A stretch of 64,000 bases of DNA from an uncultured delta proteobacterium (GTDB taxonomy: Bacteria; Desulfobacterota; Binatia; Binatales; Binataceae): contig CAWJET010000002.1 of NCBI GenBank assembly GCA_963842085.1, positions 1,120,001 to 1,184,000 on the forward strand, written 5' to 3'. Position numbers and translations under genes: made by a program. Under the pieces are notes generated by a model. The model saw only the letters and a list, made by a program, of their open reading frames with translations, was not told where the DNA came from and did not search any database. Shown piece after piece: positions 47,061 to 61,575 of this stretch. Position 1 is the first letter of the stretch. Each line of letters starts with the position of its first letter.

Positions 47061-47468
47061 TCAGGCAGCCCGGCCCGCCTTTTCTCTTTCGTGGTTGGAG
47101 GCGTATTCGTTGCGCAATCGGCTCGCCAATTCCAGTGCGATTCTCCGCCACAGCTGTGGATATCTGTCGGCCAGCGCCGAAAAGTCCGATTCCGAAATTC
47201 GCGCGACCACCGAATCAGAAGTTGCGGTGACCGACGCCGAGCGCGGCGTACGTGGATCGACGACCGCCATCTCACCGACATGCTCGCCGGCCTTCCTGCG
47301 GGCCACGATGCGCCTGTCGATCGCAACCGAAAACGCGCCCTTGAGAATCAGAAAAAGATCGGTGTCAGAGGCACCCTGCTCGATGAGTTTCGTTCCCGCA
47401 GGTACCTCTTCCAACTGTACTCGCGGCGCGACTGCTGCCGCCAGGTCCTTGTCACGGACCAAGGACTG
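47061..47468 (-). pseudogene. Cyclic-nucleotide-binding domain gene, probably 5'-truncated at the element junction
   Basis: LIEQG...LFLILKG...GEHVGEMA...RSASV. The frame opens right after a TAG inside the att-like core and has no RBS or ATG. Confidence 0.7.
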
Positions 47469-47520
47469 CTAATCCTCTGCGTCTGTCTAACCCCTTAATA
47501 TATAAGCCTTATCTCGGCAC

Positions 47521-47660
47521 TGTGCGGAAATTGTGCGGCAGACCCGCGGTGTCAGAAGCGGTGCGAAGCTCGCGTATTGGTTGGGACGCGGAAACGCCGC
47601 ACGGCTCAGGAGACGAGAGCCGCGGGCGGCGTATGGTGATCGTGGTGACTGTGGTGACTG
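47521..47660. repeat. Left-end arm-type repeats: TGTGCGG x2 (47521, 47532) and TGGTGA(TC/CT)G x3 (47634-47660)
   Basis: Counterparts at 61315-61341 (direct) and 61387-61404 (inverted). Confidence 0.8.
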
Positions 47661-48736
47661 TTATTTCCGTCGTTCCCGCGTGATGGTACGACTGTCCGAG
47701 TCGTCGGCCGCGCGTCGAGATAGTGGTCGCGTCGCTCGACAGCGGCCTTGAGATCCGTGCTAGTGGTGATGTTGTAACGAAGAAAAATCTCGCGGGTTTT
47801 GTGACCTGACAGTTCCATCGCAACTTGCTCGGGAACACCCGCGCGGCTGAGGTTCCGAATTGCGCTGCGTCTAAAGTCATGGACAATCAGCTTGGGATAA
47901 CCGATCGCCGTACAGGCGGAAGCCCAGGCGTCGCGAAAATCCCCAATCCGCTTACCGTTGACGTGGAACACGAAAGTACAATCGAGACGACGCGCGGCTC
48001 GCGCGCGTGTGATTATTTCGGCGAGCTCGCCGGACAGTGGCAATTTGCGCGGTTCTTTGTTTTTAGACTTGTCGGGCGGCAGGTTGATTTCGTTGGCCTC
48101 GATGTCGATATCGGACCACTCAAGTCCCTTCATCTCGGAGACACGCCACCCTGAGAGATAGAGGAAGGCGATCGGGTCGCGCAGACGCTCAGGTAGCTCA
48201 TTCCGAAGGGCGTTGAACTCCGCGTTCTCGACGAATCCTTTTCGGGCGTTATCCTCCGCCAGCATGTCGATCTTCGGCGCGCGAGATAGGCACTCGTCGT
48301 CAACGGCGATCTTGAACGCATGTTTGAGCGCTGCCAGCTCACGGTTGATTGTCGCGTTCGCCGCGCCTTGTTCGATCCGCGCTGTCTTATAGGCTTTAAC
48401 CCGGCCGGCATCGATATCGATGGCTAGATCAGTCCCGAAGTAGCCGCTTAGGTGTTTGATGCTGCCCTCCAGCCGCCGTCCGGATCGGCGGCCCTTATGC
48501 AGGTAATCGGTGCGGATCATTTCGGCGAGGTCTTCGAAGCGCACCTTTTCTTCGGCCTGTCCGAGGAACTTAGCGCCGCGGCGTCCGGTTTCCTTGATCC
48601 TTGCGTTCAGCAAGCGCCGCGCGACGGTTTCGGATTCGCTTTCGGACGACTCGCGATATTCCTGGCCGCGGTGCCCGTAGCGAATCCACCAAATTGTCCC
48701 GCGCAAATAGATGCCGCCTGTGCCGCGTTTACTCAT
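47606..48736 (-). CDS. Tyrosine recombinase / integrase
   Basis: N-terminal arm-binding-like GIYLRGTIWWIRY; catalytic R (GWRVSE), K (KSKNK), HDFRR, H (SGH) and Y (RYNI) all present. Confidence 0.95.
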   Translation of the reverse strand: MSKRGTGGIYLRGTIWWIRYGHRGQEYRESSESESETVARRLLNARIKETGRRGAKFLGQAEEKVRFEDLAEMIRTDYLHKGRRSGRRLEGSIKHLSGYFGTDLAIDIDAGRVKAYKTARIEQGAANATINRELAALKHAFKIAVDDECLSRAPKIDMLAEDNARKGFVENAEFNALRNELPERLRDPIAFLYLSGWRVSEMKGLEWSDIDIEANEINLPPDKSKNKEPRKLPLSGELAEIITRARAARRLDCTFVFHVNGKRIGDFRDAWASACTAIGYPKLIVHDFRRSAIRNLSRAGVPEQVAMELSGHKTREIFLRYNITTSTDLKAAVERRDHYLDARPTTRTVVPSRGNDGNNSHHSHHDHHTPPAALVS

Positions 48737-49728
48737 GACTTTCGCTCCTTCTTTTTCATCGGATTCTCACTTTGCCGGATTTCCGTGGCCGCATCGGCGA
48801 CTTTTTTTCTATCGCGTGCGGCCTGCGCGGCGTCGCGGGCTGGGATACGGGCCGCTCGGCAGGTAGGGCAATAGATGCGCCTGGCCGTCGCGTGCCCGAC
48901 TCTCTTACCTGGTGTCGGCTGGCTTGCGGACATAAAAAACAGGCGCGCGCAGGACGAGCAGCGCGCAATCGCCGCGGCCCGGACGGTTGCGGCGACGAGT
49001 TCCAGCGCGATCAACGCTAGGACTGAGCCCGTGTAGCGGTTGGCGCCGAGTTGCGGACGGACACTTCGGCCTTCGATGCCGACGTGGAATCTAACGTCCG
49101 CGATTACGAGCCAGCGATTCAGATTCTCCGCCAGCCGCTCGCGGGGATCGGAAAGAAACTGAGCGATTGGATGGTCCGGCGCATAGCCATCGATTTGCTG
49201 CCATGTTTCCGGGGCGACTTTAGCTCCGCGCTGGGTTGTCGCCGCGGCCTCGAGCAGGCGATTAGCGTCGGCGGCGCGCATACGCCACTGCGATACCGGC
49301 TCGGAATAGAGCAGCGGCGGTTCCCGCCCTATTCGTGGAAGGCAAATGAGGGTCGTCCCACCAGCCCAATGCGGCGCGGCAGGGAATTCTTCGGGCAATA
49401 CGTTGCATCCCATCGTCTCGACGGGCTGATGGTATGCGACGAAATTATGCTGTTCGCAGAGCCAGAGCGGCCCATAAGCGCGGGCAAACTCGAGCACGTC
49501 CTCATTTCCGGCCACGGGTGTTTCGAGGGCAAGGAAACTTTCGAGCATTGCGCCAATCTCGATCTTCCGCGCCGCCGCTTTCGCGCTCCAGAGAAGATCG
49601 TCGCCGGCGAGACTGAGGGTTTCGGGCGCTGACACACTGGAGCCGTCGATCGGCCGGGAGAGACCATAGGCCGTAAACAGGTCGCCCAGTCGCGCTATAC
49701 CTACGGGTTCTGGTGGCCCCTTCGTCAT
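48733..49728 (-). CDS. Hypothetical protein with C-terminal zinc finger (CGNR-like)
   Basis: FARAYGPL motif; CSSC...YCPTC followed by a basic helix. Overlaps the integrase start and is divergent from alpA. Confidence 0.65.
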   Translation of the reverse strand: MTKGPPEPVGIARLGDLFTAYGLSRPIDGSSVSAPETLSLAGDDLLWSAKAAARKIEIGAMLESFLALETPVAGNEDVLEFARAYGPLWLCEQHNFVAYHQPVETMGCNVLPEEFPAAPHWAGGTTLICLPRIGREPPLLYSEPVSQWRMRAADANRLLEAAATTQRGAKVAPETWQQIDGYAPDHPIAQFLSDPRERLAENLNRWLVIADVRFHVGIEGRSVRPQLGANRYTGSVLALIALELVAATVRAAAIARCSSCARLFFMSASQPTPGKRVGHATARRIYCPTCRAARIPARDAAQAARDRKKVADAATEIRQSENPMKKKERKS

Positions 49729-49782
49729 ACGATAATAATACACGAGTTGCAGGCACGCCGCAACCGTGAGACAACTATGCGC

Positions 49783-49983
49783 ATGAGCGCGCAACGCAAC
49801 GAAGAAACACTTCTGTCGCTCGAACAGGTTCTACAGCGCCTGCCGATTGAAGGGCGGCCGCACCGGGTGACGCTTTGGCGTTGGATAAACCAAGGCGTTT
49901 TTCCGCAGCCGTTACGACTCGGGCTGCGCAAGGTCCGATGGCGCGAAAGTGACGTCGATGCCTGGCTGGCGGAACGCAAATGA
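49783..49983 (+). CDS. AlpA family transcriptional regulator
   Basis: TLWRWINQGVFPQPLRLGLRKVRWRESDVDAWL. Confidence 0.9.
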   Translation: MSAQRNEETLLSLEQVLQRLPIEGRPHRVTLWRWINQGVFPQPLRLGLRKVRWRESDVDAWLAERK

Positions 49984-50285
49984 TCACGCTCGACGCTCTT
50001 ATTGCCGGCGAGTGTCCGACCTCGCGCGATGAGGCGGTCGCTCTGATGGGCTTGCTCGCGGCTGCTCACGCCAAGCTCGCTGCGGTCATGGCGGTGGCTA
50101 TGGTCGAGACGCCGACCGCGGACCGGCTGCTGGACGTTGACGAAGCCGCCCAGATGCTCAAGGTGGATCGGCAGTGGATATACCGGCGCACGCGCAAACT
50201 TCCGTTCGTCGTTCGCCTCGACGGCGCCGTCCGCTTTAGTGCCTCGGGCATCGAGCGCTTCATCGCGGCAAAGAGGGGGCGGTGA
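49980..50285 (+). CDS. HTH_17 / excisionase-like DNA-binding protein
   Basis: RLLDVDEAAQMLKVDRQWIYRR...LPFVVRLDGAVRFS. Confidence 0.85.
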   Translation: MITLDALIAGECPTSRDEAVALMGLLAAAHAKLAAVMAVAMVETPTADRLLDVDEAAQMLKVDRQWIYRRTRKLPFVVRLDGAVRFSASGIERFIAAKRGR

Positions 50286-51934
50286 TGGAACCTGCGCGAT
50301 TGAAAATAGTGAAGGCGTTGGAACCGACGCGACCGCGGATAGTGGTGCTGCCAGGCGAGCGGCCGTGGCTGATTGACGGAGCCGAAGAGGCTGTTCTCGA
50401 GAACTACGCTCGATGGGGGCTCTTTCAGCCCGGTGACTTGCTGGTTCGAACGACAACCTTGAGCGCCGAAGACGTTGAAAAAGAGAAACTCATCCGTCGC
50501 AAGGCCGGCTCCGTCATTTTGCGACGAGCCACCGCGCCGATGCTTGAGGACATTTTCGGTCGCGCCATCCACTGGGTGGTGCGGGTCCCGGACAAAGACA
50601 AGGTGCCGGGCTCATTCAAAGACAAGGTGATTGATTGCCCGCCCAAGGTCGCGGCGATCTACCTCTCCCGGGAAGGTATGTGGCGACTGCCGCGTCTGAC
50701 AGGGATTATCGAGGCGCCGATCATGCGGCCCGACGGGAGCGTCCTGACCGCGCCCGGTTACGATGAGGCGACCGGCCTACTCCTCCAGTCTCCGATTGCC
50801 TGGCCGGCGCTGCCCGCACCGTCGAAAGGTGCGGCCGAGGCCGCTGCAAAGTGTCTAATCGAGCCCTTTGACGAATTCCCGTTTTCATCACGCGCCGGCT
50901 CGAGCGTGCTGCTCAGTGCGATGCTCACAGGGCTTCAACGGCGGCTGCTGCCCACTGCTCCCGCGCACGCATTCGACGCGAGCATTCAAGCCGCGGGCAA
51001 AACGATTCAGGGCGACTGCGTATCGCTATTTCTTACCGGACGCGAAATAGCGTCGATGACCTTCAATTCAAACGAAGAAGAATTCCGCAAAAAATTGATG
51101 GCCGGCCTGGTTGCTGGCGATGCGATTTTCGAGATCGACAACATCACGAAACCGCTGCGCTCCGACACTCTCGCGTCGATTCTGACGAAGACACTGCACA
51201 GCGATCGGATCATGGGGCTTGGCGAGAACCGATCGGTGCCCACCAATTGCCTGTTCATTCTTACAGGCAATAATCTACAGTTTTCGGGCGATATGCCGAG
51301 TCGCGTGATCAGTTCGCGCGTCGAGCCCGACTGTGAGCGGCCCGAGGAACGGACCTTCAAAATTTGCAACCTTCGCGCCCATGTGCTCGAGCGTCGGCCG
51401 CAGTTCGTGAAGGCGGCTCTAACGATCTTGCAATCCTATTTTCACGCCGGGCGGCCGCCTCAGGGTCTTAAGCCGTTCGGCCGATTCGAGCAGTGGTCCG
51501 ACGAGATTCGCAGCGCGATCGTCTGGGCGGGGCTCCCAGATCCTTGCTTAAGCCGTGATGAAGTAATCGACGCCGATCCAGAGCGCGACGCCGCACTCGC
51601 AGTCCTCGAAAACTGGTTCCGGGTCCTCGCCGATGCGCAGACCACCATTCAGGCGTTGATCCGATGTGCAACCGGTCACGGGATGCTCGGCGATCATGAT
51701 TTCAGGCCGCCCGACGACGAGCTGAAAACCGCGCTGCTCGGAATCGCCGCAGACTATGAGTGCGCCGACAAGATATCTTCGCAACGGCTCGCTGCGTGGT
51801 GTCGCGATCGTGTCGGTCGCATCTTCGGCGAGTACAAACTTGTCCGCAGCGGCAAGGCGCACGCGGGCTTTCAGACTTGGCAAATTGTGAAATTAAACAA
51901 ACCGACGGAAACGATAGTAACTAAGGAGATTTGA
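50282..51934 (+). CDS. Putative replication helicase (SF3-like ATPase of phage/satellite type)
   Basis: RPDGSVL..PGYD..TG, Walker A (QAAGKT), Walker B (FEIDN) and TGNN motifs. No primase domain recognised. Confidence 0.75.
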   Translation: MMEPARLKIVKALEPTRPRIVVLPGERPWLIDGAEEAVLENYARWGLFQPGDLLVRTTTLSAEDVEKEKLIRRKAGSVILRRATAPMLEDIFGRAIHWVVRVPDKDKVPGSFKDKVIDCPPKVAAIYLSREGMWRLPRLTGIIEAPIMRPDGSVLTAPGYDEATGLLLQSPIAWPALPAPSKGAAEAAAKCLIEPFDEFPFSSRAGSSVLLSAMLTGLQRRLLPTAPAHAFDASIQAAGKTIQGDCVSLFLTGREIASMTFNSNEEEFRKKLMAGLVAGDAIFEIDNITKPLRSDTLASILTKTLHSDRIMGLGENRSVPTNCLFILTGNNLQFSGDMPSRVISSRVEPDCERPEERTFKICNLRAHVLERRPQFVKAALTILQSYFHAGRPPQGLKPFGRFEQWSDEIRSAIVWAGLPDPCLSRDEVIDADPERDAALAVLENWFRVLADAQTTIQALIRCATGHGMLGDHDFRPPDDELKTALLGIAADYECADKISSQRLAAWCRDRVGRIFGEYKLVRSGKAHAGFQTWQIVKLNKPTETIVTKEI

Positions 51935-52389
51935 AAATGGATCGGAAAGAATTCGAGGGGATCGAAACTGAGGAGCGCGTCACATTTTCGCTGAACGATG
52001 CCTGGCGGATCGTCGCCGAAGGGCCCGAGGCCGCGGTCGATCGTGCTCTCGCGCGCATCGCGCCATTCCGCCTCGAGGTCGCCGAGGTCCTGCGCGAACG
52101 GCAGGGGTTGCCTAAGCGCGGCGAAGAAATCGTCAGGCGAGAGGTGTCGGCGAACGTGCCGAGCAAAGAGGTGCAGCGCGCGAACTATATCAAATGGTTC
52201 AGCGAGAAAGGTATGTACTATAGGCCCAGCGAGCAGGAGCTTGACGCGATGTTCGCGCAGGTTAATGAGGGGGATGAGATTTTTTTGATTTCGCCCACTC
52301 GTTCACGGTGCGCCGTCCGAATGGGCTCCTTGTGGCTGTGGACCGCAAGGGCCGCGTCACTCCGCCGTCGCCGTACAGCCCGGCGCTGA
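51931..52389 (+). CDS. Hypothetical protein (possible frameshift at the T7 run 52280-52286)
   Basis: AAGGAG RBS and overlap with the helicase stop. Confidence 0.55.
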   Translation: MKMDRKEFEGIETEERVTFSLNDAWRIVAEGPEAAVDRALARIAPFRLEVAEVLRERQGLPKRGEEIVRREVSANVPSKEVQRANYIKWFSEKGMYYRPSEQELDAMFAQVNEGDEIFLISPTRSRCAVRMGSLWLWTARAASLRRRRTARR

Positions 52390-52435
52390 AAAAGTAGAAA
52401 AGGAACGGCCGCGAGCGTTACGAGCGCCGGCGGCC

Positions 52436-53284
52436 GTGACGGAGAGAAACGCAATGAGTCCGACGACCATATCAGAGCCGCGCGTGCCGTGGCGCAACGA
52501 TCTGCGCGCGGAGTTGAATTCGATCGCGAACTGCAACCTTCACAAGTACACAGGAATCGAAGGGCTGTCCCTCGGGCTGCACGTCATTCACGTGCATCCG
52601 CCAGACTACGTGAGTAAGGACGACTACACCTTTAAGCTGTCCTGGAAGGAGCGACGACTCACTCGCGACCCGCACCGGCCGCAACCGGCGCTATCGCGGC
52701 AAAGGTTTGACGAGCTGGTGGATCATGAACGCCGATTCGGCCGGCGCTCACGCATCGCAGACGAGGATCGCGTGCTCTCGGGCGTCGATCTATTGGCCGA
52801 CAACTCGTGGCCTTTTTGTCGCACTTGCGGCCTGCCCTTCGCCGCGATGCTGAATGGGCACCCGAGACAGGGCTTTTGGGTGTGTCGAATCGAGGACGGC
52901 GCCGATCTCTGCGAGTGCTGCTGGCTGGCTGAGCATTACGCCGGCGACCGCCAAGCGATGATTCAGCACGTGCTCGCGCAAGACCTCGGCGGCGACGTGA
53001 TGCGTGCGTCCGTCAGACTGGGGCTCCGCCGCGGGTGGGATGACGACACCATATTTTTTCGGAACGTGGAGGCCTACTGGACCTCGCCCGGACTCTTCGA
53101 ATTGCTTCGGCTTCATCGGGTCAGCATGTCGGAATCCGCCGGAGTGATCTTGCAGGTGCTCGAGGCGCTGATTGCTGAGGCGAAACCCGAGGAGCGGTTG
53201 TCGAAGCAACAGAGGGACGAGCGACGCGCGGCACTGTGGCGCGACGAGCAGCGCGATCCGCGCACGCTCGCGGCTATCGGGTGA
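52436..53284 (+). CDS. Hypothetical protein with putative Zn-binding motifs
   Basis: CRTC...CECC; operon context. Confidence 0.55.
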   Translation: MTERNAMSPTTISEPRVPWRNDLRAELNSIANCNLHKYTGIEGLSLGLHVIHVHPPDYVSKDDYTFKLSWKERRLTRDPHRPQPALSRQRFDELVDHERRFGRRSRIADEDRVLSGVDLLADNSWPFCRTCGLPFAAMLNGHPRQGFWVCRIEDGADLCECCWLAEHYAGDRQAMIQHVLAQDLGGDVMRASVRLGLRRGWDDDTIFFRNVEAYWTSPGLFELLRLHRVSMSESAGVILQVLEALIAEAKPEERLSKQQRDERRAALWRDEQRDPRTLAAIG

Positions 53285-53340
53285 AAGCACTTGAGCGAGC
53301 GGCGCTGGACCGGGCGCACGGCTGAGGGAGTCCGACCGAC

Positions 53341-53751
53341 ATGAGGTACACCGATACCTTTGAGGTTGGCTGGGCCTTGGTCAAACGCTCGACGGGGAAG
53401 GCGATTCTATGCGTTGGCCGCCCGCCTTGTGTCATCGCCGGCAATGACATGTGGGTGCCGCGCAGCCAACTTCGCTGCGACCTAAGTCGTGTCGGTGACT
53501 ACGGACTCCTAGTTGTAACCGGCTGGTGGGCGAACAAGAGCGGCCTACTCGATATTGACGACGTTGACGACGACCGCTGCGATGAACATCACGAACCACC
53601 AGCACCGCTCCGGCTGGTCGAGACTGAGCAGACTTATCGCCGCCTGGCGAACGAGCATCACCCTGATCACGGCGGCAACCTTCGCGTGATGCAAGCGATC
53701 AACTTGTTAATAGACGCGGTGCACAGGGACCTGCGCCGCGCAAATGGGTGA
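53341..53751 (+). CDS. Hypothetical protein with C-terminal J-domain-like HPD motif
   Basis: YRRLANEHHPDHGGNLRVMQAIN. Confidence 0.65.
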   Translation: MRYTDTFEVGWALVKRSTGKAILCVGRPPCVIAGNDMWVPRSQLRCDLSRVGDYGLLVVTGWWANKSGLLDIDDVDDDRCDEHHEPPAPLRLVETEQTYRRLANEHHPDHGGNLRVMQAINLLIDAVHRDLRRANG

Positions 53752-53805
53752 AATGCAGACATCGGAAATTTTTCAGGCACGCCTTGAGTGTGCTCTTTGT
53801 CGCGC

Positions 53806-53985
53806 ATGGACAGCAATCAAACAGATTCGGGCGCGTTCGTCTCGATTCCGGCCGCGGCGAAAAAATTGGGTGTGAGCACAAAACGGCTTGCGCTGGCGAT
53901 CGATCTGAGGCAGGTGCCGGCGGTCATGCTCGGCCGGCGCAAAGTGATCCCGAGGCAGGCGATCCAGAAGCTACTAGACCAATGA
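53806..53985 (+). CDS. Excisionase-like HTH protein
   Basis: VSIPAAAKKLGVS...VPAVMLGRRKVIPRQAIQKLL. Confidence 0.8.
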   Translation: MDSNQTDSGAFVSIPAAAKKLGVSTKRLALAIDLRQVPAVMLGRRKVIPRQAIQKLLDQ

Positions 53986-54191
53986 GAAAAACGGACGAGC
54001 TATTCGCCGCCTACCGCGCTTTGATCGACGAGCACCTCGCGATGCGAAAACAGCTCGGCGCGGCAATGCGGACCTTTGAACGCGAATTTCGCGCGTGCAG
54101 GCCGGAAGATGAAGCGTCGCTGGCGTCGAAGTTTCGCGCGATTCTGGAGGCGCTTCGTGCGTCTGAAATAGGAAAGGAGAGCAACGAGTGA
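53982..54191 (+). CDS. Small helical hypothetical protein
   Basis: ATGA and GTGA overlaps with both neighbours. Confidence 0.6.
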   Translation: MRKTDELFAAYRALIDEHLAMRKQLGAAMRTFEREFRACRPEDEASLASKFRAILEALRASEIGKESNE

Positions 54192-54865
54192 ACAAGGAAA
54201 TTTTTGATGAAATTTTTGCTGACTTTTCTGCCGCGAACAAACTGATCGAGCGCGATCCGGTCGTGATGGGCGAGAGGCTCGCTCGAGCAGCCTGCGATCG
54301 AATCCTTCTGCCGGATCTGCCGGTGGACGTTCTACACAAGGGTTTAAGTCAGCGGGTTGGTGCGCTGTCGGGCCGCATGAAGGACGCCGTCGAGCGTGGC
54401 AGGGCGTATCTGATTGCCGAAACGATCATCCCGGAATTCGCGAACGATCTGCGCGACTGGATGAGCTATGAGCGAAGGTCAGGGGCGTTGAAGCCCTGGT
54501 CCGCGGCGGACAAGGGCAAGGGCAAGGCTCACCTGTTCGAAGGGTTCGCGTGGCACCGCGAGCCCGGCATGATCATAAGGCGCCTCGAACGTGGCGATGA
54601 TTTCGGAAAGATAACCTTTCGCGAAGTTGAGATCGTCGGCGCTGACGGCACCCATAAGCCTTCGTTCGTACGACGCGATCCGCGTATCGACGACTACCGG
54701 CCGGTCGGTCGGAGCAAAGAGAGTTGGTATCAAGAGTGGTGCACGCCAGAAAGCGTGATCGCCGAAGCTGAGGCGGCGGCGCGGCGCGAGGAGGAAATCG
54801 CAACGCGGCCATTTTCAGCCACGTCCGGGCCGAATGCCGGCGAGGCGACAGTGGTGCGCCGATGA
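54188..54865 (+). CDS. Hypothetical protein
   Basis: AAGGAG RBS; translationally coupled. Confidence 0.6.
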   Translation: MNKEIFDEIFADFSAANKLIERDPVVMGERLARAACDRILLPDLPVDVLHKGLSQRVGALSGRMKDAVERGRAYLIAETIIPEFANDLRDWMSYERRSGALKPWSAADKGKGKAHLFEGFAWHREPGMIIRRLERGDDFGKITFREVEIVGADGTHKPSFVRRDPRIDDYRPVGRSKESWYQEWCTPESVIAEAEAAARREEEIATRPFSATSGPNAGEATVVRR

Positions 54866-55257
54866 GCGGAATTTGCGTCGGCGGGATCGCGATCGAGATT
54901 ATGTCCAATGAAAGGGGGAATTCCATGTATGGTTTAACAGAGCTCTCAACTTATGGCCTGAGAGAGGCCGTGCGCCGCGTTATGACGGCGATGAATGAAG
55001 ATCCCCGCGCAGGGGAAGCGATGCTGCGAGCGCGCGGTAAGGGCGGGCTCGTAGGCGTGTCGCTTCACGCATCTCCACCAGGTTCGCAACCATATCCCGG
55101 AAAACGTGCACCGTCGCCGTTTCCGCCGGCGGATGACTGGCGGCCGTCAAATCCCGGTGTAGTCGAGTCCGACGAAGATGACGACGACGGTCTCGAGATG
55201 GGCGTTCAATTTCCAGATCGATCGACGAACCGCAGTCGCCGAAAAAAGGGGAAGTAA
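54862..55257 (+). CDS. Hypothetical protein (acidic/basic C-terminus)
   Basis: Coupled ORF; the start is uncertain. Confidence 0.5.
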   Translation: MSGICVGGIAIEIMSNERGNSMYGLTELSTYGLREAVRRVMTAMNEDPRAGEAMLRARGKGGLVGVSLHASPPGSQPYPGKRAPSPFPPADDWRPSNPGVVESDEDDDDGLEMGVQFPDRSTNRSRRKKGK

Positions 55258-55259
55258 AC

Positions 55260-55541
55260 ATGGGCTGGAACACGAAACTGAGCAACGTCGCCAAGTCAGG
55301 ATCGACGACGGCGATCAACGCGCTGACCGCCGCGAATTGCGCCGGCGACGTTGGCAAGGATGCTGGTTTCGCGACGCATCTTTCGGCGGCCCAAAACGCC
55401 GCGATCGCCGCCGTCGCGGGGCTCGGAGGCGCCGCTGCGAACTGCGACGTCTCCCTAGTCTGCAATACAGACACCGGACCAGGCCGGGCCGGAATCGACG
55501 CTGGCGCTGTGATCACGATCACAGTGGTCGAGCGACATTGA
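55260..55541 (+). CDS. Small Ala/Gly-rich hypothetical protein
   Basis: GGGGAAG RBS, 2 nt after the previous stop. Confidence 0.6.
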   Translation: MGWNTKLSNVAKSGSTTAINALTAANCAGDVGKDAGFATHLSAAQNAAIAAVAGLGGAAANCDVSLVCNTDTGPGRAGIDAGAVITITVVERH

Positions 55542-55714
55542 TGTGTGAAGAAGTTTTGCCGAGGCGTGCGGTAGTACCGCCCGCTCGAAAGCCGCCGGTT
55601 TTGCCGCCGGCGGCCCCCTCGGCAAAGCCGAGGCAAGCGCGGCCTTGTTCCCCGCGTGAGGGTTCGGTGCGCCTTCCACGCCGGCCCTCAGCCTCGGCGA
55701 TTTCTGAATCGTGA
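55541..55714 (+). CDS. Small Pro/Arg-rich hypothetical protein
   Basis: TGATG overlaps on both sides. Confidence 0.4.
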   Translation: MCEEVLPRRAVVPPARKPPVLPPAAPSAKPRQARPCSPREGSVRLPRRPSASAISES

Positions 55715-56130
55715 TGGAAACTTCAACCGCAATTGAACCGAGTAAGCCTCGACGCACGCCCGCGCTTAAGCGCGACCAACAGCGGCGCCGAAAAGTGACA
55801 GCCTTGGTCCGGCTCAGCGGCCGTGACGATCCTAAGTATCGTCCGGGGTTCCAAATGGCGGCCGAAATTCTTCTGGTCAAAGAGCGCGTCTATTTAAGTT
55901 TGAAAGATCGGGAACTCATTAACCCGGATGGCTCGGTCATCGGTGCGGTCGAAAGTTTCCGAAGACTTTGCGACAGCGCGGGCGCGGCCTTGAAGGCGCT
56001 AGGTCTGCTCCCCAGCTCCGTTCTACCCGATGAGCGTGCCGGATCTCTCGATGCCGTCTTCGAACGGATTTCAAAGGTACGCAGGGTACGCGAAGGGGCC
56101 GCGAGCGGTGAGCAGAGCCCAGCAGCTTGA
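55711..56130 (+). CDS. Putative terminase small subunit
   Basis: Overlaps the terL start; helical, with an ALGLLPSS motif reminiscent of P27-type TerS. Confidence 0.55.
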   Translation: MMETSTAIEPSKPRRTPALKRDQQRRRKVTALVRLSGRDDPKYRPGFQMAAEILLVKERVYLSLKDRELINPDGSVIGAVESFRRLCDSAGAALKALGLLPSSVLPDERAGSLDAVFERISKVRRVREGAASGEQSPAA

Positions 56131-57576
56131 ACACGCCCGCGAGGACCTCGCGGCATACGCAGCGGCGCTCTACCCTCGGTTCGAACTGCCACCGCACCTG
56201 CGCATTCTCGTTTCGGTCCTCGAGCGCGTTGAGCGTGGCGAACTGGACCGCGTGATTGTGGCGATGCCGCCCCGGCACGGCAAGAGCATGACGACGAGTC
56301 AGTTGTTTCCCGCATGGTATCTCGGGCGCAATCCTACCAAGTCGATCATCGCCAGCTCGTACGGACAGGAACTCGCGAGCGACTTCGGGCGCCGCGTCCG
56401 GAACTTCGCCAGCGAACGATTGCATCGTCAGATCTTCCCCGAGTGTGTGATCGCCGACGACAGCGATAGTGTCCGTCGGTTCCATACGACGGCGGGCGGT
56501 GCGTTTTACGGAATTGGCGCCGGTGGACCGATTACCGGCCGCGGCGCTGACCTGCTGCTGATCGACGACCCGATCAAGAGTGCCGACGACGCGCGCTCGC
56601 CTGCGCTGCGCCGTTCGCTTCAAGAGTGGTACCAGAACGTCCTATATACGCGGGCCGAACCGGGTGCCGCGATCGTTTTGATCCAAACGAGATGGCATCA
56701 AGACGACCTCGCGGGCTGGCTACTCAAAGAGCATGCGAGCGAAGGCTGGAAAGTGATCTCACTGCCCGCAATCGCGGAGGTGAGCGAAGGTTGGAGAAAC
56801 GAAGGCGATGCGTTGTGGCCCGCGCGCTTCCCGCGCGAGACACTGGACCGCATCCGCGAAGCGATCGGCACCACGGCATGGACTGCGCTGTACCAACAGC
56901 GGCCGGCGCCCGAGCAAGGCGCTATCTTCCGGCGCGAGTGGTGGCGGCCGTACGCCGGTCCGGTCGAGTGTCACCGAACAATTTTCTCGCTCGACACGGC
57001 GTATAAGGCCGGCCTGGCGAACGATTATTCGGTGATCGCGATTGTCGGCGAGTCGCGCGACGGGTATTACCTGCGCCACGTCAGTCGCGGAAGGTGGGAA
57101 TTTCCACTGAGGCACTTGCCGAGATCTGGAAACCTCACGCCGTGCTGATCGAGGATGCCGCAAGCGGCCAGTCTCTCATTCAGGCGCTCAAAGCCGAGAC
57201 GCGACTGCCGATCCTGCCAGTCAAGCCGCTCGGCGATAAGGTATCGCGCGCGCATGCCGTCAGCCCGCTGGTCGAGAGTGGTCGCGTGTTTGTTCCTGCC
57301 GAGGCTTCTTGGCTCGCCGACTTCATCGATGAGGCGACGTCATTCCCCGCGGCGCCGCACGACGACCAGGTGGACGCGATCACGCAGGCGCTCAATTACC
57401 TACGGGGCGAGGGACACGGCGAGTATCACTTCATCTCGCTGCGCGAATGCGAGGCGGCGGCGGCCGGCGGCCAAAACTACAGTACGCTAGGCCGCCAGCA
57501 GAGGATCGACCGCCTCGAGGACGGACGACTGGCGCGCCAACGGGCGCGGCGGGGCAGGTTCGCGGGTGTTTGGTAG
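56108..57576 (+). pseudogene. Terminase large subunit (Terminase_6-like), frameshifted near 57100
   Basis: PPRHGKS (Walker A), LLIDDP (Walker B), QTRWH and SLDTAYK in frame 1. IEDAASG and HDDQVDA continue in the -1 frame (57094-57576). Confidence 0.88.
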
Positions 57577-57602
57577 AAGAAAAAATTAGTAGTAGAACCA
57601 CA

Positions 57603-57785
57603 GTGCACCTTTTTGTAGGCAACATTTTGTTTTCGATGACCGAGCGAGAGCTGCGCGATTTGCTGGAGCCATACGACTGTGAGAGCGCGCGGGCGGAAAT
57701 TCACATCGAGGTTGCGCCGAGTTCCCGGTTCCGGTCACCTGATCATCGGCGGGCAGCAGCTCGGGCTCCGCGGTCGGCGTGGTAG
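57603..57785 (+). pseudogene. Truncated RNA-recognition-motif (RRM) fragment
   Basis: HLFVGNILFSMTERELRDLLEPY matches RNP-2 plus helix 1; no RNP-1 follows. Confidence 0.55.
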
Positions 57786-58044
57786 CGTCGAACTGCTCGG
57801 GCGGTTGCCCTGCGGAAGCTGCGCGGCACGAGGCCTGATTTAGAATCGCCCCGTAGCGGCAAGGCCGCGAAGGTTTCCGGCAGAGAGCGGATCATCGATA
57901 GGCCGCCTTGTTGCATGGAGCGAAGTTGTCGGCCGCGCGGCAGTTTGCTAACCCACAGACACGACGCTCCGACAAACTGCACGATGAACCTTCCTTGGAA
58001 ACGAAAGCTCCCGACCGGAGAGGCTCTATAGGGAGGCTGAACGG

Positions 58045-58629
58045 ATGGGTGTCTCGCTGTCAGGGCGGGACACTCCGTTAAGGGAACCCGAGTTGCAGCG
58101 CCGTCTGCTCGATGCCCGGGCCGACAGGCGAAATGCGATCCTAAATTGGGGTCAGACCATAGGCATCATCGGCACACTTTTGGTCACGCTTTTCTTTTCC
58201 GCGCGCAATCGGACAGCGCAAGTGAACCAGACGTCCGGCGATTTCATGCTCCGTTTCGATGACAAGCTCAATGCTGGTGGGAGCGGACGTGTTAGCAGGG
58301 CGCTGGATAATGGTGTTCCGCTGACCGGGGACAAGGACGTGTCGGATGACGACATCGACGATTTTCTATCAAATTACGAACTCCTAGCGGCAGCGTATCG
58401 TCATGAATTGATCAACCGAGACATGGCTGAGGACGCGTTCTCGTACGACCTAGAAAAGGCGCTGAAAGAACCGCGCATCGAACAACAACTCGTCGACGAG
58501 AGGCGCGAGGAAAGCGACATCTACGATGGCGTTCTCGAGCTGGCGCGGGCGTGGAATATCAGTACAGATCTGACCGTCCCCGCAAGCCCGACAAGCGCAT
58601 CAAGTCCGACTACTGCGCCGACTCATTGA
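58045..58629 (+). CDS. Membrane-anchored hypothetical cargo protein (DUF4760-like)
   Basis: GGGAGG RBS, one N-terminal TM and a FLSNYELLA..Y helical domain. Confidence 0.6.
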   Translation: MGVSLSGRDTPLREPELQRRLLDARADRRNAILNWGQTIGIIGTLLVTLFFSARNRTAQVNQTSGDFMLRFDDKLNAGGSGRVSRALDNGVPLTGDKDVSDDDIDDFLSNYELLAAAYRHELINRDMAEDAFSYDLEKALKEPRIEQQLVDERREESDIYDGVLELARAWNISTDLTVPASPTSASSPTTAPTH

Positions 58630-58869
58630 TCGTTATTGAGCGCGAGAGGACTATGACGCTTCGGCCGGGAGACGCTTTGCCCAGGCATCCAGTTTCCGCG
58701 AACCTTCGCTTTTCATGACCGCATTTGTTAAACGGCAAGGATGAATCTCCGCCACACTGCCGCGCTCGCGGGTTTGCTCACCTTCGACGCGATTCTCGCG
58801 GAGGCCTGAAAATTCCCCTTGTCCGGGTGGGTCGACTCACCGAGATCGCTCAAGTAGGCTTTTGGCTGA

Positions 58870-59268
58870 ATGGACGGCGCTATCTGCACGGATTGTGGCC
58901 ACGCGTTTGGAGGCGAGAAACCTGGCGTGCCCTGCCCCGAGTGCGGTTCGATCCGACGTACCATCACCGCCGGCGGGGAACAGAAAGCCAAACCGGAGAT
59001 GAAAGGCTCCGGTACGGTCAACTTCGCGGCTCGGATAGAAACGCACTCGGGCCTGACAGGCAGCGTTATCGTTGACAAACTTGTTGTTGTCTTAATAAAC
59101 AACTGGTTTAGGTTCTGCTTGGGGATCGCCCTAATACTTGTGTTGGAAGCGATTAGCTCGGTTTTGCCCCAATTCTTGGGGTCCGTCGTCCGTGTGGTTT
59201 TCGAGGTGGTGATTTTGCTGTGCGTACCCAATTGGCGAGTCCCTGAAGCCAAAAGAAAACGCTCCTGA
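58870..59268 (+). CDS. Zinc-ribbon protein with C-terminal TM helices
   Basis: CTDCG...PCPECGS and two hydrophobic segments. Confidence 0.55.
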   Translation: MDGAICTDCGHAFGGEKPGVPCPECGSIRRTITAGGEQKAKPEMKGSGTVNFAARIETHSGLTGSVIVDKLVVVLINNWFRFCLGIALILVLEAISSVLPQFLGSVVRVVFEVVILLCVPNWRVPEAKRKRS

Positions 59269-59648
59269 TCCGCTGAACCCCCGTGTTAACGGCCTAGGCG
59301 AAGGGCCTGAAAAATGCCCCGGCTCTGGGTTGTTCAAGCCCCTATTATCCAGTAACGGTGAGCAAGCAGAGGATTCACCCTCGACCGGCCTAGGGTTTCT
59401 TTTGGTTGCTCAATGAACGACCGAAATGAACAAGCAGACAACCAGAGAAACCCGCCCTCCGGTTGTTCATCTCGCGGCCGGGCCTACGGATCGGCGTGAC
59501 GCCACGGTTCGGCATCGACACGAACGCCTAACTCGTTTCGCCGATCGCTGATCGCGAGCCCGCGATTCCGCTCGCGCGCGCGATGACGACGTTGCAATGC
59601 CCGCGTGCACAATTCGATCTGCCGAACGTGCCGGCCGGCGCCGGCCGA

Positions 59649-59837
59649 CTAGCGCGAACGGTAGCGTTCGAGCGCGATCAAAGAACCACCAACCAGAAGC
59701 GCCAAGCCACTGGCGACGGTTCCTGGATCGAGCTCCGGAGCAGGCCAAACGCGGGTTGCACCTGCGACTCCTTGGAAGCCAACCGCGAAGACGGCACCAG
59801 CTGCAACGGTCAAAATCCACTTAGGAAGGTTTTTCAT
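59649..59837 (-). CDS. Minimal secreted peptide with PEP-CTERM/VPEID-CTERM-like sorting signal
   Basis: GGAGGAG RBS; signal peptide, then APELDPG, a TM helix and the basic tail ERYRSR. Confidence 0.7.
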   Translation of the reverse strand: MKNLPKWILTVAAGAVFAVGFQGVAGATRVWPAPELDPGTVASGLALLVGGSLIALERYRSR

Positions 59838-60199
59838 TGCATCTCCTCCGTAGAAAGATTAGATACAACCAAAAGCATCTGATTGTCAATTCAAAGAGAC
59901 TCAAATCAAATAAAGTCAAATTAAATAAACCATTCGTACGGTCATTCGTACGGTCCTCTACACCGTTCAACCCCAACGGCCCTAGGGGTTTCGTTGCGCA
60001 GGCCCCTGGCAAACCCAACAAATACTTGATTCGAACGGCTTAAGCCCTTGAAAATAAAGGGAAATATCGGGACCGTACAGGTGTCCAACTGTTTTTCGGG
60101 TGATAAAGGGTGCTTGGTACGAGACGGCGAAGCTACTCACAACAGGGGCCGAAAGCAATTTGCATGGAATTACGCCATATGGTACGGTCTACAGTTTAT

Positions 60200-60430
60200 A
60201 TGGCTGGAACACGATCAATAGATATACAAAAGGGCATCAAGGCCGCCGATAATAGCCGCCGATCCGCATGGGAGCAGTTTCGTAGCGACGAGAAGCTCCA
60301 GCATGCCTACAACGTCAAACCCGAAGAACTGGAATCTCTCTCAAGGCTGGCGATGCTAGGGAACGTCGCAAGCAAGCACGATTATCTTTTCATCCTTAAA
60401 ACGATGCGGGCCAGGCGTCACCGCTACTGA
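60200..60430 (+). CDS. Small hypothetical protein
   Basis: Helical ORF SAWEQF...HDYLFILKTMR; the start is uncertain. Confidence 0.5.
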   Translation: MAGTRSIDIQKGIKAADNSRRSAWEQFRSDEKLQHAYNVKPEELESLSRLAMLGNVASKHDYLFILKTMRARRHRY

Positions 60431-60504
60431 TCGGAGTGATGCCACTTGAGGCGCGTAGAGCGCCGGCGCCAGCATCGCGCTCGCCGCTTGTCCTTCCTGC
60501 TACT

Positions 60505-60590
60505 TCGAGGTCGCGCGTAATGCCGAGGTCGGATAACTTCATTGTCGTCGAGGTCGCGCGTAATGCCGAGGTCGGATAACTTCATTGTCG
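60505..60590. repeat. Perfect 43-bp tandem duplication
   Basis: TCGAGGTCGCGCGTAATGCCGAGGTCGGATAACTTCATTGTCG x2. Confidence 0.95.
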
Positions 60591-60622
60591 TCAGTGACGA
60601 CGATGATTTTCGATCCCGCCTT

Positions 60623-61174
60623 TTATTTCTGAGCTTTCGGTTTGCCGGATGTAATGTCGATGAAACCCGTTCGCCCTTCTTGGCCAACCTGGCGCTCTAT
60701 ATCATTCGCGGCTCTGCGCGAGATCTCGTCGAGCAGGTCCGGCCGCTTCTCAGCCAGCTCTTTAACGTGCTCGGCTGCCCATTTATTAAATTGGCCCTCG
60801 CGAGCTCCTGATCCGGCTTGCAGGATGTTCTGAACCTTTTGTTGCACCTGACGTTTGGCCGCCGTGTTTTCGGTCGTCGCTTCTCCCAGTACGGCAAAAG
60901 TAATCGACGCACGTACAGATTCATCGATCGGGATGGTTAAGTAGGCTTCCGGTTGCCTCACTGAACAGCGAGGATAGCGGACAAGGCTCGTCCCGTTCGA
61001 ACCAAATATCTCAATCTCGAACTCTTTGCCGTTTAGCACCGCACATAAGGTCTCTTGATTGCCGAGCAGTTCACGCCCACGATTCGTGAAAACTAAGGCA
61101 GTTACAGTCATCGTGTCCAGGCCCTCGCGCAGCGTTACTATCTCTCCGGCAGCTCTTCCGATTCCGGTCGCCAT
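60623..61174 (-). CDS. Hypothetical cargo protein
   Basis: Long, lower-GC ORF; the start is uncertain. Confidence 0.5.
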   Translation of the reverse strand: MATGIGRAAGEIVTLREGLDTMTVTALVFTNRGRELLGNQETLCAVLNGKEFEIEIFGSNGTSLVRYPRCSVRQPEAYLTIPIDESVRASITFAVLGEATTENTAAKRQVQQKVQNILQAGSGAREGQFNKWAAEHVKELAEKRPDLLDEISRRAANDIERQVGQEGRTGFIDITSGKPKAQK

Positions 61175-61314
61175 AGCTTGTTCGGTTTGGCCAGGAACCA
61201 AACTTGCCTGATCGGTTTCCCCGAAGGCCACAACATCACAATTCCACCAGAGTTTGACGCCTAGATTGCTCATACAGTGGATGATAGCAGGTGGAAGTCG
61301 GCGCACGAAACTTT

Positions 61315-61404
61315 TGGTGACTGTGGTGACTGTGGTGACTGTATTTTACCCCGTTAGAATTTCTATTGCCCCAGCTTTTCACCCAACCGCACAAAACCTG
61401 TACA
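61315..61404. repeat. Right-end arm-type repeats: TGGTGACTG x3 (61315-61341) and CCGCACA/CTGTACA (61387, 61398)
   Basis: Mirror the left-end repeats; the heptamer pair has the same 11-bp period. Confidence 0.8.
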
Positions 61405-61490
61405 ATCCGCCTTGATCTCCCGGCTTCCAAACACCGCGCTCTGTTCTCGATGGCCGCTATAACTATCTAATTTTATTGTCTAATTTCAAA

Positions 61491-61575
61491 TGCCGGGGGC
61501 GGGACTCGAACCCGCACGGAGCTTTCGCTCCAGAGGATTTTAAGTCCTCTGCGTATGCCATTTCGCCACCCCGGC
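61491..61575 (-). tRNA. tRNA-Leu(TAA)
   Basis: GCCGGGG acceptor stem, anticodon arm AGAGGA-CTTAAAA-TCCTCT, long variable arm GGAGC-GAAA-GCTCC and GGTTCGAGTCC T-loop; CCA not encoded. Confidence 0.97.

Follow-up and report, generated by a model that had tools for sequence, protein, structure and literature searches.

A Candidate Family of Helper-Dependent Phage Satellites with Their Own Terminase in Binataceae (Class Binatia), Entered through a Decaying Copy

Introduction

Known phage satellites either borrow the large terminase of their helper, as do the phage-inducible chromosomal islands (PICIs), the PICI-like elements (PLEs) and P4, or bring a whole head, as do the capsid-forming PICIs (cf-PICIs). 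P4 is not known to carry terminase genes and redirects the size of the capsid through Sid/Psu, while its helper supplies the whole virion. The element considered here occupies positions 47470–61488 (~14 kb) of a 64,000-nucleotide stretch of a Binataceae genome (assembly GCA_963842085.1, contig CAWJET010000002.1, positions 1,120,001 to 1,184,000; hereafter the window, to which all coordinates refer) and adjoins a tRNA-Leu gene. It is likely a decaying copy, probably no longer mobile, that belongs to a family of 13–16 kb, tRNA-integrating, helper-dependent satellites of Binataceae (class Binatia) that carry their own terminase. A preliminary description of the window had already proposed a satellite bearing both the small (TerS) and the large (TerL) terminase subunit; the recurrence of an element with a terminase and without portal or capsid is now observed, whereas helper dependence, together with packaging and tail chimerism, is what we infer from it.

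In the account of de Sousa et al. (2023; PMC10085698), the structural genes of PICIs are typically limited to terS and a capsid-morphogenesis gene, without terL. AlpA-type PICIs such as EcCICFT073 share with the Binataceae family a terminal integrase, AlpA, their own helicase/primase, small genes ahead of terS, cargo after the packaging genes and a size of 13–16 kb, whereas the Binataceae elements have a full TerL of two clades, often a tape measure and no recognisable capsid-morphogenesis gene, and reside in uncultured hosts. Among the core features of PICIs, the integrase, the AlpA-type regulator and the replication helicase are present in the window (the sisters of the element have a D5-type or MCM-like primase-replicase instead of this helicase), a capsid-morphogenesis match is absent and TerL is present. 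The cf-PICIs (Alqurainy et al.) are described in the same source as carrying TerS and TerL plus capsid, portal, protease and head–tail adaptor/connector genes and as taking only tails from the helper (PMC10085698). The window element likewise carries both subunits, a putative TerS with weak family matches and a broken TerL, but no capsid, portal, protease or connector was found in the window or in ten sister elements, so that the dependency would be the reverse of that of cf-PICIs, with heads and most of the tail coming from the helper.

A tape measure carried by a satellite also has precedents. PLE11 of Vibrio cholerae builds chimeric tails from its own tape-measure protein (TMP), chaperone and baseplate hub, as shown experimentally, and the legend of Extended Data Fig. 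10 of the same paper refers to putative tmp genes in other putative satellites (PMC12987554). The Binataceae elements, known here from genes alone, resemble PLE11 in having a tape measure with a small upstream partner; the likeness is one of gene content, with no sequence relation seen, and TerL is element-encoded in the Binataceae family, whereas PLEs are reported in PMC11417361 to rely on packaging proteins of the helper. The EPIPs of Mycolicibacterium carry a small terminase and a tape measure, and TMPs are called rare in satellites by the authors of that preprint; they differ in their serine integrase and in the listed head–tail adaptor, stopper, scaffold and capsid-related genes, TerL not being among the genes listed there (PMC12822802). 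PICMIs and VEIMEs are presented in PMC9618062 as having no large terminase. P4-like elements have in common with the window element the tRNA integration, an integrase, an AlpA-like regulator and a primase/helicase, whereas the window has TerL and, across Pfam, PHROGs and NCBIfam, no Sid, Psu or Delta match among its open reading frames (ORFs). A complete temperate tailed phage differs from the family in that no portal, capsid, tail tube or lysis genes were seen in the window or in ten sisters. No description of a satellite with TerS and TerL and without a capsid was found in a literature search that left supplements and subscription-only papers outside its scope, and a search for Binatia or Binatota together with phage gave nothing relevant. 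The family is rated a kind of phage satellite, with a combination of genes apparently undescribed in the literature searched.

A Recurrent Element without Recognised Head Genes

When one genome per species was searched with the N-terminal part of TerL, 11 loci emerged, four of which (L004–L007; TerL 70–80% identical) have the gene order of the window: int, alpA, HTH (helix-turn-helix), rep, o152, o282, o147, o225, o131, terS and terL, the names beginning with o standing for conserved small proteins. Related genomes with the same gene order and an intact terL, which the preliminary description had called for, do exist. In addition, a profile of o282 built from 29 sequences (alignment A1) was positive in nine of 165 Binataceae genomes, its own included, and in three of 301 class-wide genomes, all in one family, and led to the members L065–L070, to one IMG/VR record (UViG133, 15,691 nt) and to metagenome fragments. 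Ten sisters (L004, L005/L087, L006, L007, UViG133, L065, L066, L067, L068 and L070) were scanned with Pfam and/or PHROGs; they are spread over four genera and six different tRNA genes (Leu, Phe, Ser-tga, Ser-gct, Gly and Arg). The contig of L005 is binned as 'Acidobacteriaceae' and carries the same element as the longer metagenome contig L087; this bin assignment looks wrong, because L087 has flanks that are orthologues of those at the Binataceae locus of the window.

No head genes were recognised in any of these sisters. Downstream of terL in L004–L010, 117 ORFs of at least 90 aa gave no portal, capsid or tail family in Pfam, their matches being to HTH proteins, a methyltransferase, an AAA ATPase, an RRM protein, insertion sequence elements and host genes. 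There was likewise no portal or capsid match among 38 upstream ORFs of L004–L007 (Pfam, PHROGs), the 16 ORFs of UViG133 or 85 ORFs of L065–L068 and L070. In the upstream and whole-element scans, the only proteins matched in the 'head and packaging' class were TerL itself and, in UViG133, an HTH-type protein with a weak match to phrog_57 (terS family, E 1e-05). Six-frame searches with the portal phrog_12 were negative in all five records or genomes holding L005, UViG133, L004, L006 and L007, and those with the capsid phrog_10 matched only on two other contigs of the bin holding L005. By comparison, the TerL relatives in L011 (46% identical) and L013 (37%) belong to ordinary phages, where terL is followed at once by genes for portal, protease and capsid. 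Since the sisters all lack head genes and these phages have them, the head-less state is recurrent and no accident of the window copy. Portal or capsid genes after terL in sisters, the outcome set beforehand as speaking against a satellite, were thus seen in none of the ten, and the earlier reading against random prophage erosion is upheld by ten sisters that share the conserved module and the TerS-like gene, nine of them with an uninterrupted TerL. The earlier statement that portal, capsid and tail genes are all lacking holds for the window and, as regards head genes, for the ten sisters, but six of the ten have a tape measure and one has a LysM/tail-X protein.

Intact relatives consist of an integrase, AlpA/HTH regulators, an exchangeable helicase/primase, the small-protein block, often a tape measure, a TerS-like protein, TerL, usually an RRM protein and cargo. 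Their size is 14–15 kb where both ends are visible, within a family range of 13–16 kb. Integrases, tRNA targets and replication proteins vary between members, the last being helicase-only, D5_N/DUF5906, MCM-like or phrog_2373 helicase types, while o152, o282, o147, o225, o131 and the TerS-like protein are constant (alignments A1, A3, A4 and A6–A8). An RRM-type gene usually lies 3' of terL in the sisters (RRM_1 match in L006), and some sisters have cargo of a defence type (L005, OLD/GajA-like ATPase; L004, type II methyltransferase). Pairwise ratios of nonsynonymous to synonymous substitution rates (dN/dS) are 0.07–0.22 for TerL (16 pairs) and 0.11–0.46 for o282, o225 and terS (seven of ten pairs each, the rest being saturated); these ratios, rough because dS mostly exceeds 1, point to long-term purifying selection.

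Terminase and Tape Measure

The terL of the window matches PF03237 (Terminase_6N, E 7.5e-15) and PF17289 (Terminase_6C, E 1.6e-13), and its two halves match phrog_38 (E 1.9e-88 and 1.8e-26). TerL is one open frame in nine of the ten sisters, L066 retaining a fragment of 118 aa only. Two unrelated PHROG families occupy the same position: phrog_38 in the window and six sisters (L004–L007, UViG133 and L068), and phrog_9 in three (L065, L067 and L070). Both families belong to portal-dependent HK97-type packaging. The TerS-like protein is homologous across the two TerL clades and always lies directly upstream of TerL. This fixed position is the main ground for calling it TerS, as the preliminary description did; the family matches are weak: Terminase_4 in three of ten members (best E 0.0056), Terminase_6 in one of ten (E 0.0064), no terminase family for the window protein itself and nothing below E 0.13 for the TerS profile against PDB sequences.

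In six of the ten sisters, a tape-measure-like protein of 596–830 aa (phrog_28, E 7.5e-29 to 5.2e-36) is encoded between o147 and o225, intact in L004, L006, L007, UViG133 and L067 and split in L068; o147 thus lies directly upstream of it. The protein of L007 found no PDB sequence at E <= 0.01, and no tape-measure homologue exists anywhere in the genome of the window. UViG133 encodes in addition a protein of 1073 aa with a weak tail-protein match, and L005 has a LysM/Phage_tail_X, baseplate-hub-like protein in place of the tape measure.

The family members probably travel in particles of helper phages. A tailed helper phage would trigger excision and replication of the element, whose TerS–TerL would then cut its DNA and package it into the portal-bearing procapsids of the helper; where present, the tape-measure gene and its small upstream partner could replace the helper counterparts in the tail, as in PLE11. 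The swap of TerL clades on one backbone fits an adaptation to helpers with different portals.

The TerL clade of the window is more widely spread than o282, being present in 35 of 165 Binataceae genomes at E <= 1e-10. Nine of ten regions fetched (L071–L079; TerL 54–69% identical) are compact, holding a terS–TerL pair that in most cases is accompanied by an integrase and/or a primase; they lie beside various tRNAs, tRNA-SeC among them, and lack the o282 module. The tenth (L080; TerL 44% identical) has TerL alone. By tblastn, the portal and capsid proteins of L011 and L013 had no match in any of these ten regions, and in five of these TerL-clade genomes no phrog_12 or phrog_156 portal was found near the TerL copy.

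The genome of the window contains a second capsid-less terminase element at a tRNA-Leu(tag) (locus L061, G000 C2:9001-29000), with an integrase of 405 aa, a primase/helicase of 661 aa, an HNH protein of 131 aa, a phrog_9 TerL of 637 aa and a TerS-like protein of 168 aa. At a tRNA-Val of the same genome (locus L063, G000 C2:1036001-1056000), a prim-pol/helicase of 834 aa, 46% identical to the window helicase, and an integrase of 351 aa occur with no terminase. In a Vulcanimicrobiota metagenome-assembled genome (MAG), a TerL 37% identical to that of the window (L012) is flanked by a primase of 818 aa and a sigma factor. A serine integrase lies downstream and a portal is absent, so that this other phylum may also have a capsid-less terminase element.

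Gene Map of the Window Copy

The host genome measures 4.93 Mb in two contigs, and its nearest relatives are Candidatus Binatus/Binataceae MAGs. The features of the element and its borders are as follows.

47061..47469, minus strand: host gene of the left flank (cNMP-binding-like), its 5' end cut off where the element begins
47470..47482, no strand: attL core remnant TAA-TCCTCTGCGT, matching the tRNA anticodon region 61541–61554 with one gap
47606..48736, minus strand: tyrosine integrase, full length (Pfam Phage_integrase PF00589 E 2.7e-18; phrog_1 E 2e-51)
47634..47674, no strand: TGGTGACTG repeats, left set, candidate arm-type recombinase sites (repeat family D1)
48733..49794, minus strand: Zn-ribbon accessory protein of 353 aa (o353), two CxxC pairs
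49747..49983, plus strand: AlpA-type regulator/excisionase (PF05930 E 8.3e-9; phrog_66)
49980..50285, plus strand: HTH_17 DNA-binding protein (HTH_17 E 1.7e-9)
50282..51934, plus strand: replicative helicase, corresponding to the C-terminal part of prim-pol/helicase proteins (phrog_29234 E 3.4e-91; phrog_19930 E 5e-29)
51931..52397, plus strand: conserved family protein o152, frameshifted (ORF 51931–52389)
52436..53284, plus strand: conserved family marker o282, CxxC...CxxC Zn-ribbon and helical domain
53341..53751, plus strand: accessory protein of 136 aa (o136), J-domain-like HPD motif
53979..54191, plus strand: small helical protein o147
54188..54865, plus strand: conserved helical family protein o225
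54862..55257, plus strand: conserved family protein o131
55260..55541, plus strand: conserved small protein of 93 aa (51% identical ORFs in L070 and L073)
55711..56130, plus strand: TerS-like protein of 139 aa, weakly P27/Terminase_4-like, directly upstream of terL
56108..57576, plus strand: terL pseudogene in two frames (56030/56108–57148 and 57094–57576)
57636..57740, plus strand: truncated remnant of the RRM-type gene, first 34 codons left
57741..61306, no strand: variable cargo, lower G+C
61306..61355, no strand: TGGTGACTG repeats, right set
61491..61575, minus strand: tRNA-Leu(taa), the 3' half of which (61491–61548) is the block duplicated as attL/attR in sisters

Profiles and motifs agree with the earlier reading of a leftward integrase and Zn-finger gene and of alpA, an HTH gene and a helicase running rightward, the ORF of 353 aa being recognised by its CxxC pairs; it has a homologue 58% identical in the metagenome sister L081 and no family match in Pfam, PHROGs, NCBIfam or PADLOC (best PDB-sequence E 0.65). 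In the integrase translation, HxxR, GHKT and LRY motifs are visible, and the last 25 aa form an unconserved tail that reads through the 9-nt TGGTGACTG repeats. The helicase has no Pfam match and no PDB sequence at E <= 0.01. The HTH protein that had been placed at the head of the second gene block (53341–53751) gave no HTH match, and, among the small ORFs described between this gene and terS, that of 178 aa at 55178–55714 has no homologue; the conserved gene there is 55260–55541 (93 aa).

Portal, capsid, protease and tail families were absent among 25 window ORFs (Pfam, PHROGs) and among 24 (NCBIfam), and neither tail tube nor lysis genes were found in the window or sister scans. A scan for promoters and terminators showed no signal (4 promoter sites, 4.0 expected; 17 terminator sites, 16.7 expected), and the tRNA was the sole Rfam match. 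Several cargo ORFs have relatives elsewhere in the genome: the ORF 60110–60430 (106 aa) has eight tblastn matches, 59583–59882 (99 aa) has a copy 72% identical and 58045–58629 (194 aa) has a fragment 79% identical. Within the cargo, positions 60505–60590 are a perfect tandem duplication with a 43-nt unit.

Decay of the Window Copy and Strain Polymorphism

The window copy is decaying and can be regarded as a fossil, since it no longer has attL, carries frameshifts in terL and o152 and keeps only the start of the RRM gene. In terL, 16 nt are missing after GAATTTCC at 57105 in the alignment with five sisters, which shifts the frame by -1, and contigs from the metagenome runs X1, X6 and X7 cross the break without gaps. 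An assembly error or a programmed frameshift was considered for this break and discarded, given the deletion relative to five sisters and the agreement of the contigs of three runs. The break of terL into two frames had been recognised at the outset; it was the only damage named then, to which the other lesions are now added. In o152, a frameshift lies in a T7 run at ~52279–52285 and the conserved C-terminus (DFAHSFTVR...) continues in the -1 frame; contigs of runs X1 and X6 match the window there with no gaps. A family-wide programmed shift at this T7 run was likewise rejected, the sisters being in frame.

The sisters L005/L087 have perfect 58-nt att repeats, equal to the 3' half of tRNA-Leu, at the locus orthologous to that of the window; there, 3.8 kb of host genes separate the left-flank gene known from the window from the 58-nt copy, after which come the element, the intact tRNA and a right-flank gene that is likewise shared with the window. 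A 57-nt copy of the tRNA 3' half is also kept as attL in L021 (G001). In the window, this block occurs once, in the tRNA itself, with no direct repeat at the left end. The 9-nt TGGTGACTG repeats, which in L005 are found near the right end and, inverted, near the left end, were also considered as att sites and set aside, since the att block of the sisters is the tRNA 3' half. Moreover, the minus-strand host gene of the left flank has lost ~24 N-terminal codons: homology to relatives ends at 47469, and the gene runs ~24 codons further to an ATG in L021–L026 and L087. The flank comparison covered five relatives including G023, and its conclusion rests on the other four and on L087. The view that both ends and the integrase are intact is therefore kept for the integrase, which looks complete, but not for the ends, attL being gone and the left host gene cut at 47469. 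The window copy is probably immobile, because, with the displaced tRNA half gone, the tRNA would be destroyed if the integrase crossed over at the anticodon loop.

Two soil metagenome runs of one study (X5 and X6) contain a contig that joins 47469 straight to 61489, skipping 14,019 nt, with no shared letters at the joint and 30 letters on its shorter side. The depths of the contigs are as follows.

Run X5: joint contig 6.6; element contigs ~8.9; shared flank contig 13.9
Run X6: joint contig 7.0; element contigs ~6; shared flank contig 13

The depth of the shared flank is in both runs about the sum of the joint and element contigs, and that of the joint is about half of the flank. From the joint contig and these depths, it follows that in some near-identical strains the truncated flank gene lies directly against the tRNA 3' end. 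The joint represents one of two things, an empty site or an allele with attL still in place. The two forms may go back to an attL-bearing ancestor: excision would have produced the empty allele, and the window copy would have been stranded by loss of the 52-nt block. An empty site was not found in relatives: five genomes of the same genus have the left flank, and in them synteny breaks immediately right of it.

Conserved Small Proteins

None of the 25 database homologues of o282 has a Pfam domain; C128, C131, C159 and C162 are invariant in the family alignment. Its AlphaFold (AF2) model (predicted local distance difference test, pLDDT, 81.7; predicted template modelling score, pTM, 0.77) consists of helices and a small sheet, the Zn-ribbon loop being poorly modelled, and had no Foldseek match in the PDB at E <= 0.001 (best E 0.69), a best Z of 4.8 in the VIA-wide search and a best ESM Atlas score of 0.84, under the bar of 0.9. 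The model of o225 (pLDDT 84.1) is helical with a three-stranded sheet and resembles only generic helical bundles: the best E is 0.49 in the PDB by Foldseek and 0.16 in BFVD, and the VIA-wide search gave Z up to 8.8 solely with designed helical repeats over residues 1–102. Judged from these models, o282 and o225 are predicted to have no HK97 capsid, portal or tail-tube fold, and the HK97 or portal folds for which the small ORFs were to be examined did not appear in these two largest unknowns. In o136, an HPD motif is seen, the PDB matches to DnaJ J-domains (E 0.54–0.83) are not significant, and homologues occur in the elements L075 and L079.

Alternative Explanations

Several results weigh against a helper-dependent satellite family. 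No helper phage was identified, and the genome of the window has no match to PF04860, PF05065 or PF05133, three widespread families of portal and capsid proteins. No circular or virion-derived copy was found: none of seven metagenome contigs with an o282 homologue has terminal repeats, and UViG133 is classed as linear, integrated with host flanks and without a terminal repeat. Portal and capsid families are diverse, and the reach of the tests was that of Pfam and PHROG profiles plus two folds. The assignment of TerS is weak, its main basis being the fixed position upstream of TerL. The small proteins have no recognised function, and a role in capsid redirection or interference, as first suggested, is a guess. 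The cargo of the window shows no known defence family, PADLOC giving no match on 16 window ORFs. In addition, the allele joining 47469 to 61489 is not derivable from the window copy by a simple integrase crossover.

Of the alternatives, the one that survives best is a real family that is an unpackaged integrative island, spread by other means, in which the terminase and tape-measure genes serve as anti-phage decoys in defence or are neutral hitch-hikers. The defence-type cargo of L004 and L005 would suit it, as would the virion evidence that was looked for and not found in metagenome contigs and the IMG/VR record, and satellite proteins that interfere with the terminase or TMP of the helper are documented (reported in PMC12987554 and PMC11417361). 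However, a complete TerS–TerL pair kept through swaps between two clades fits a working motor for different portals better than a decoy; an integrase with AlpA, own replication and a size of one third to one half of a typical phage genome make up the satellite pattern as outlined in PMC10085698; and interference and transfer can coexist in known satellites. We therefore regard such an island as unlikely.

An autonomous miniature virus, with capsid and portal hidden among the unrecognised small proteins, appears quite improbable. Five to seven conserved proteins of no recognised function do lie where structural genes could be, and the sisters show tape-measure-like and weak tail-protein matches. 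Nevertheless, the two largest of these proteins model confidently as helical or Zn-ribbon proteins, the remaining ones, at 70–170 aa, fall short of the size of known portals and HK97 capsid proteins, nothing recognisable as a tail tube, protease or lysis gene turned up, and TerL of both families would still need a portal.

Finally, a one-off deletion derivative of an ordinary prophage, its head and tail genes randomly eroded in this lineage, is disfavoured and hardly credible, for despite the visible decay of the window copy and a tape-measure-like gene in six sisters that could be a leftover of a tail module, the ten sisters in four genera and at six tRNA genes equally lack head genes, nine have an open TerL under purifying selection where computed, their sizes cluster at 14–15 kb and at least nine further compact int–primase–terS–terL elements show no match to the portal or capsid of L011 and L013.

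Implications

The helper-dependent satellite family may well amount to a widespread satellite class in Binataceae, with TerS and TerL, often its own tape measure and partner, and procapsid, portal and the rest of the tail from the helper, in which TerL is swapped as a whole while TerS and five private small proteins are kept. The window copy itself matters less, its main value being that it led to the family. Virus-prediction pipelines would be affected, since IMG/VR lists one member of the family as a virus that is 28% complete. If the proposed packaging is true, a satellite that brings only the motor, and sometimes a tail ruler, would represent a third division of labour with the helper, and two TerL clades on one conserved backbone would be a natural experiment on the recognition of foreign portals by TerL. 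Through the family, mobile elements also come into view for the first time in Binatia, a class of soil bacteria that is common but uncultured.

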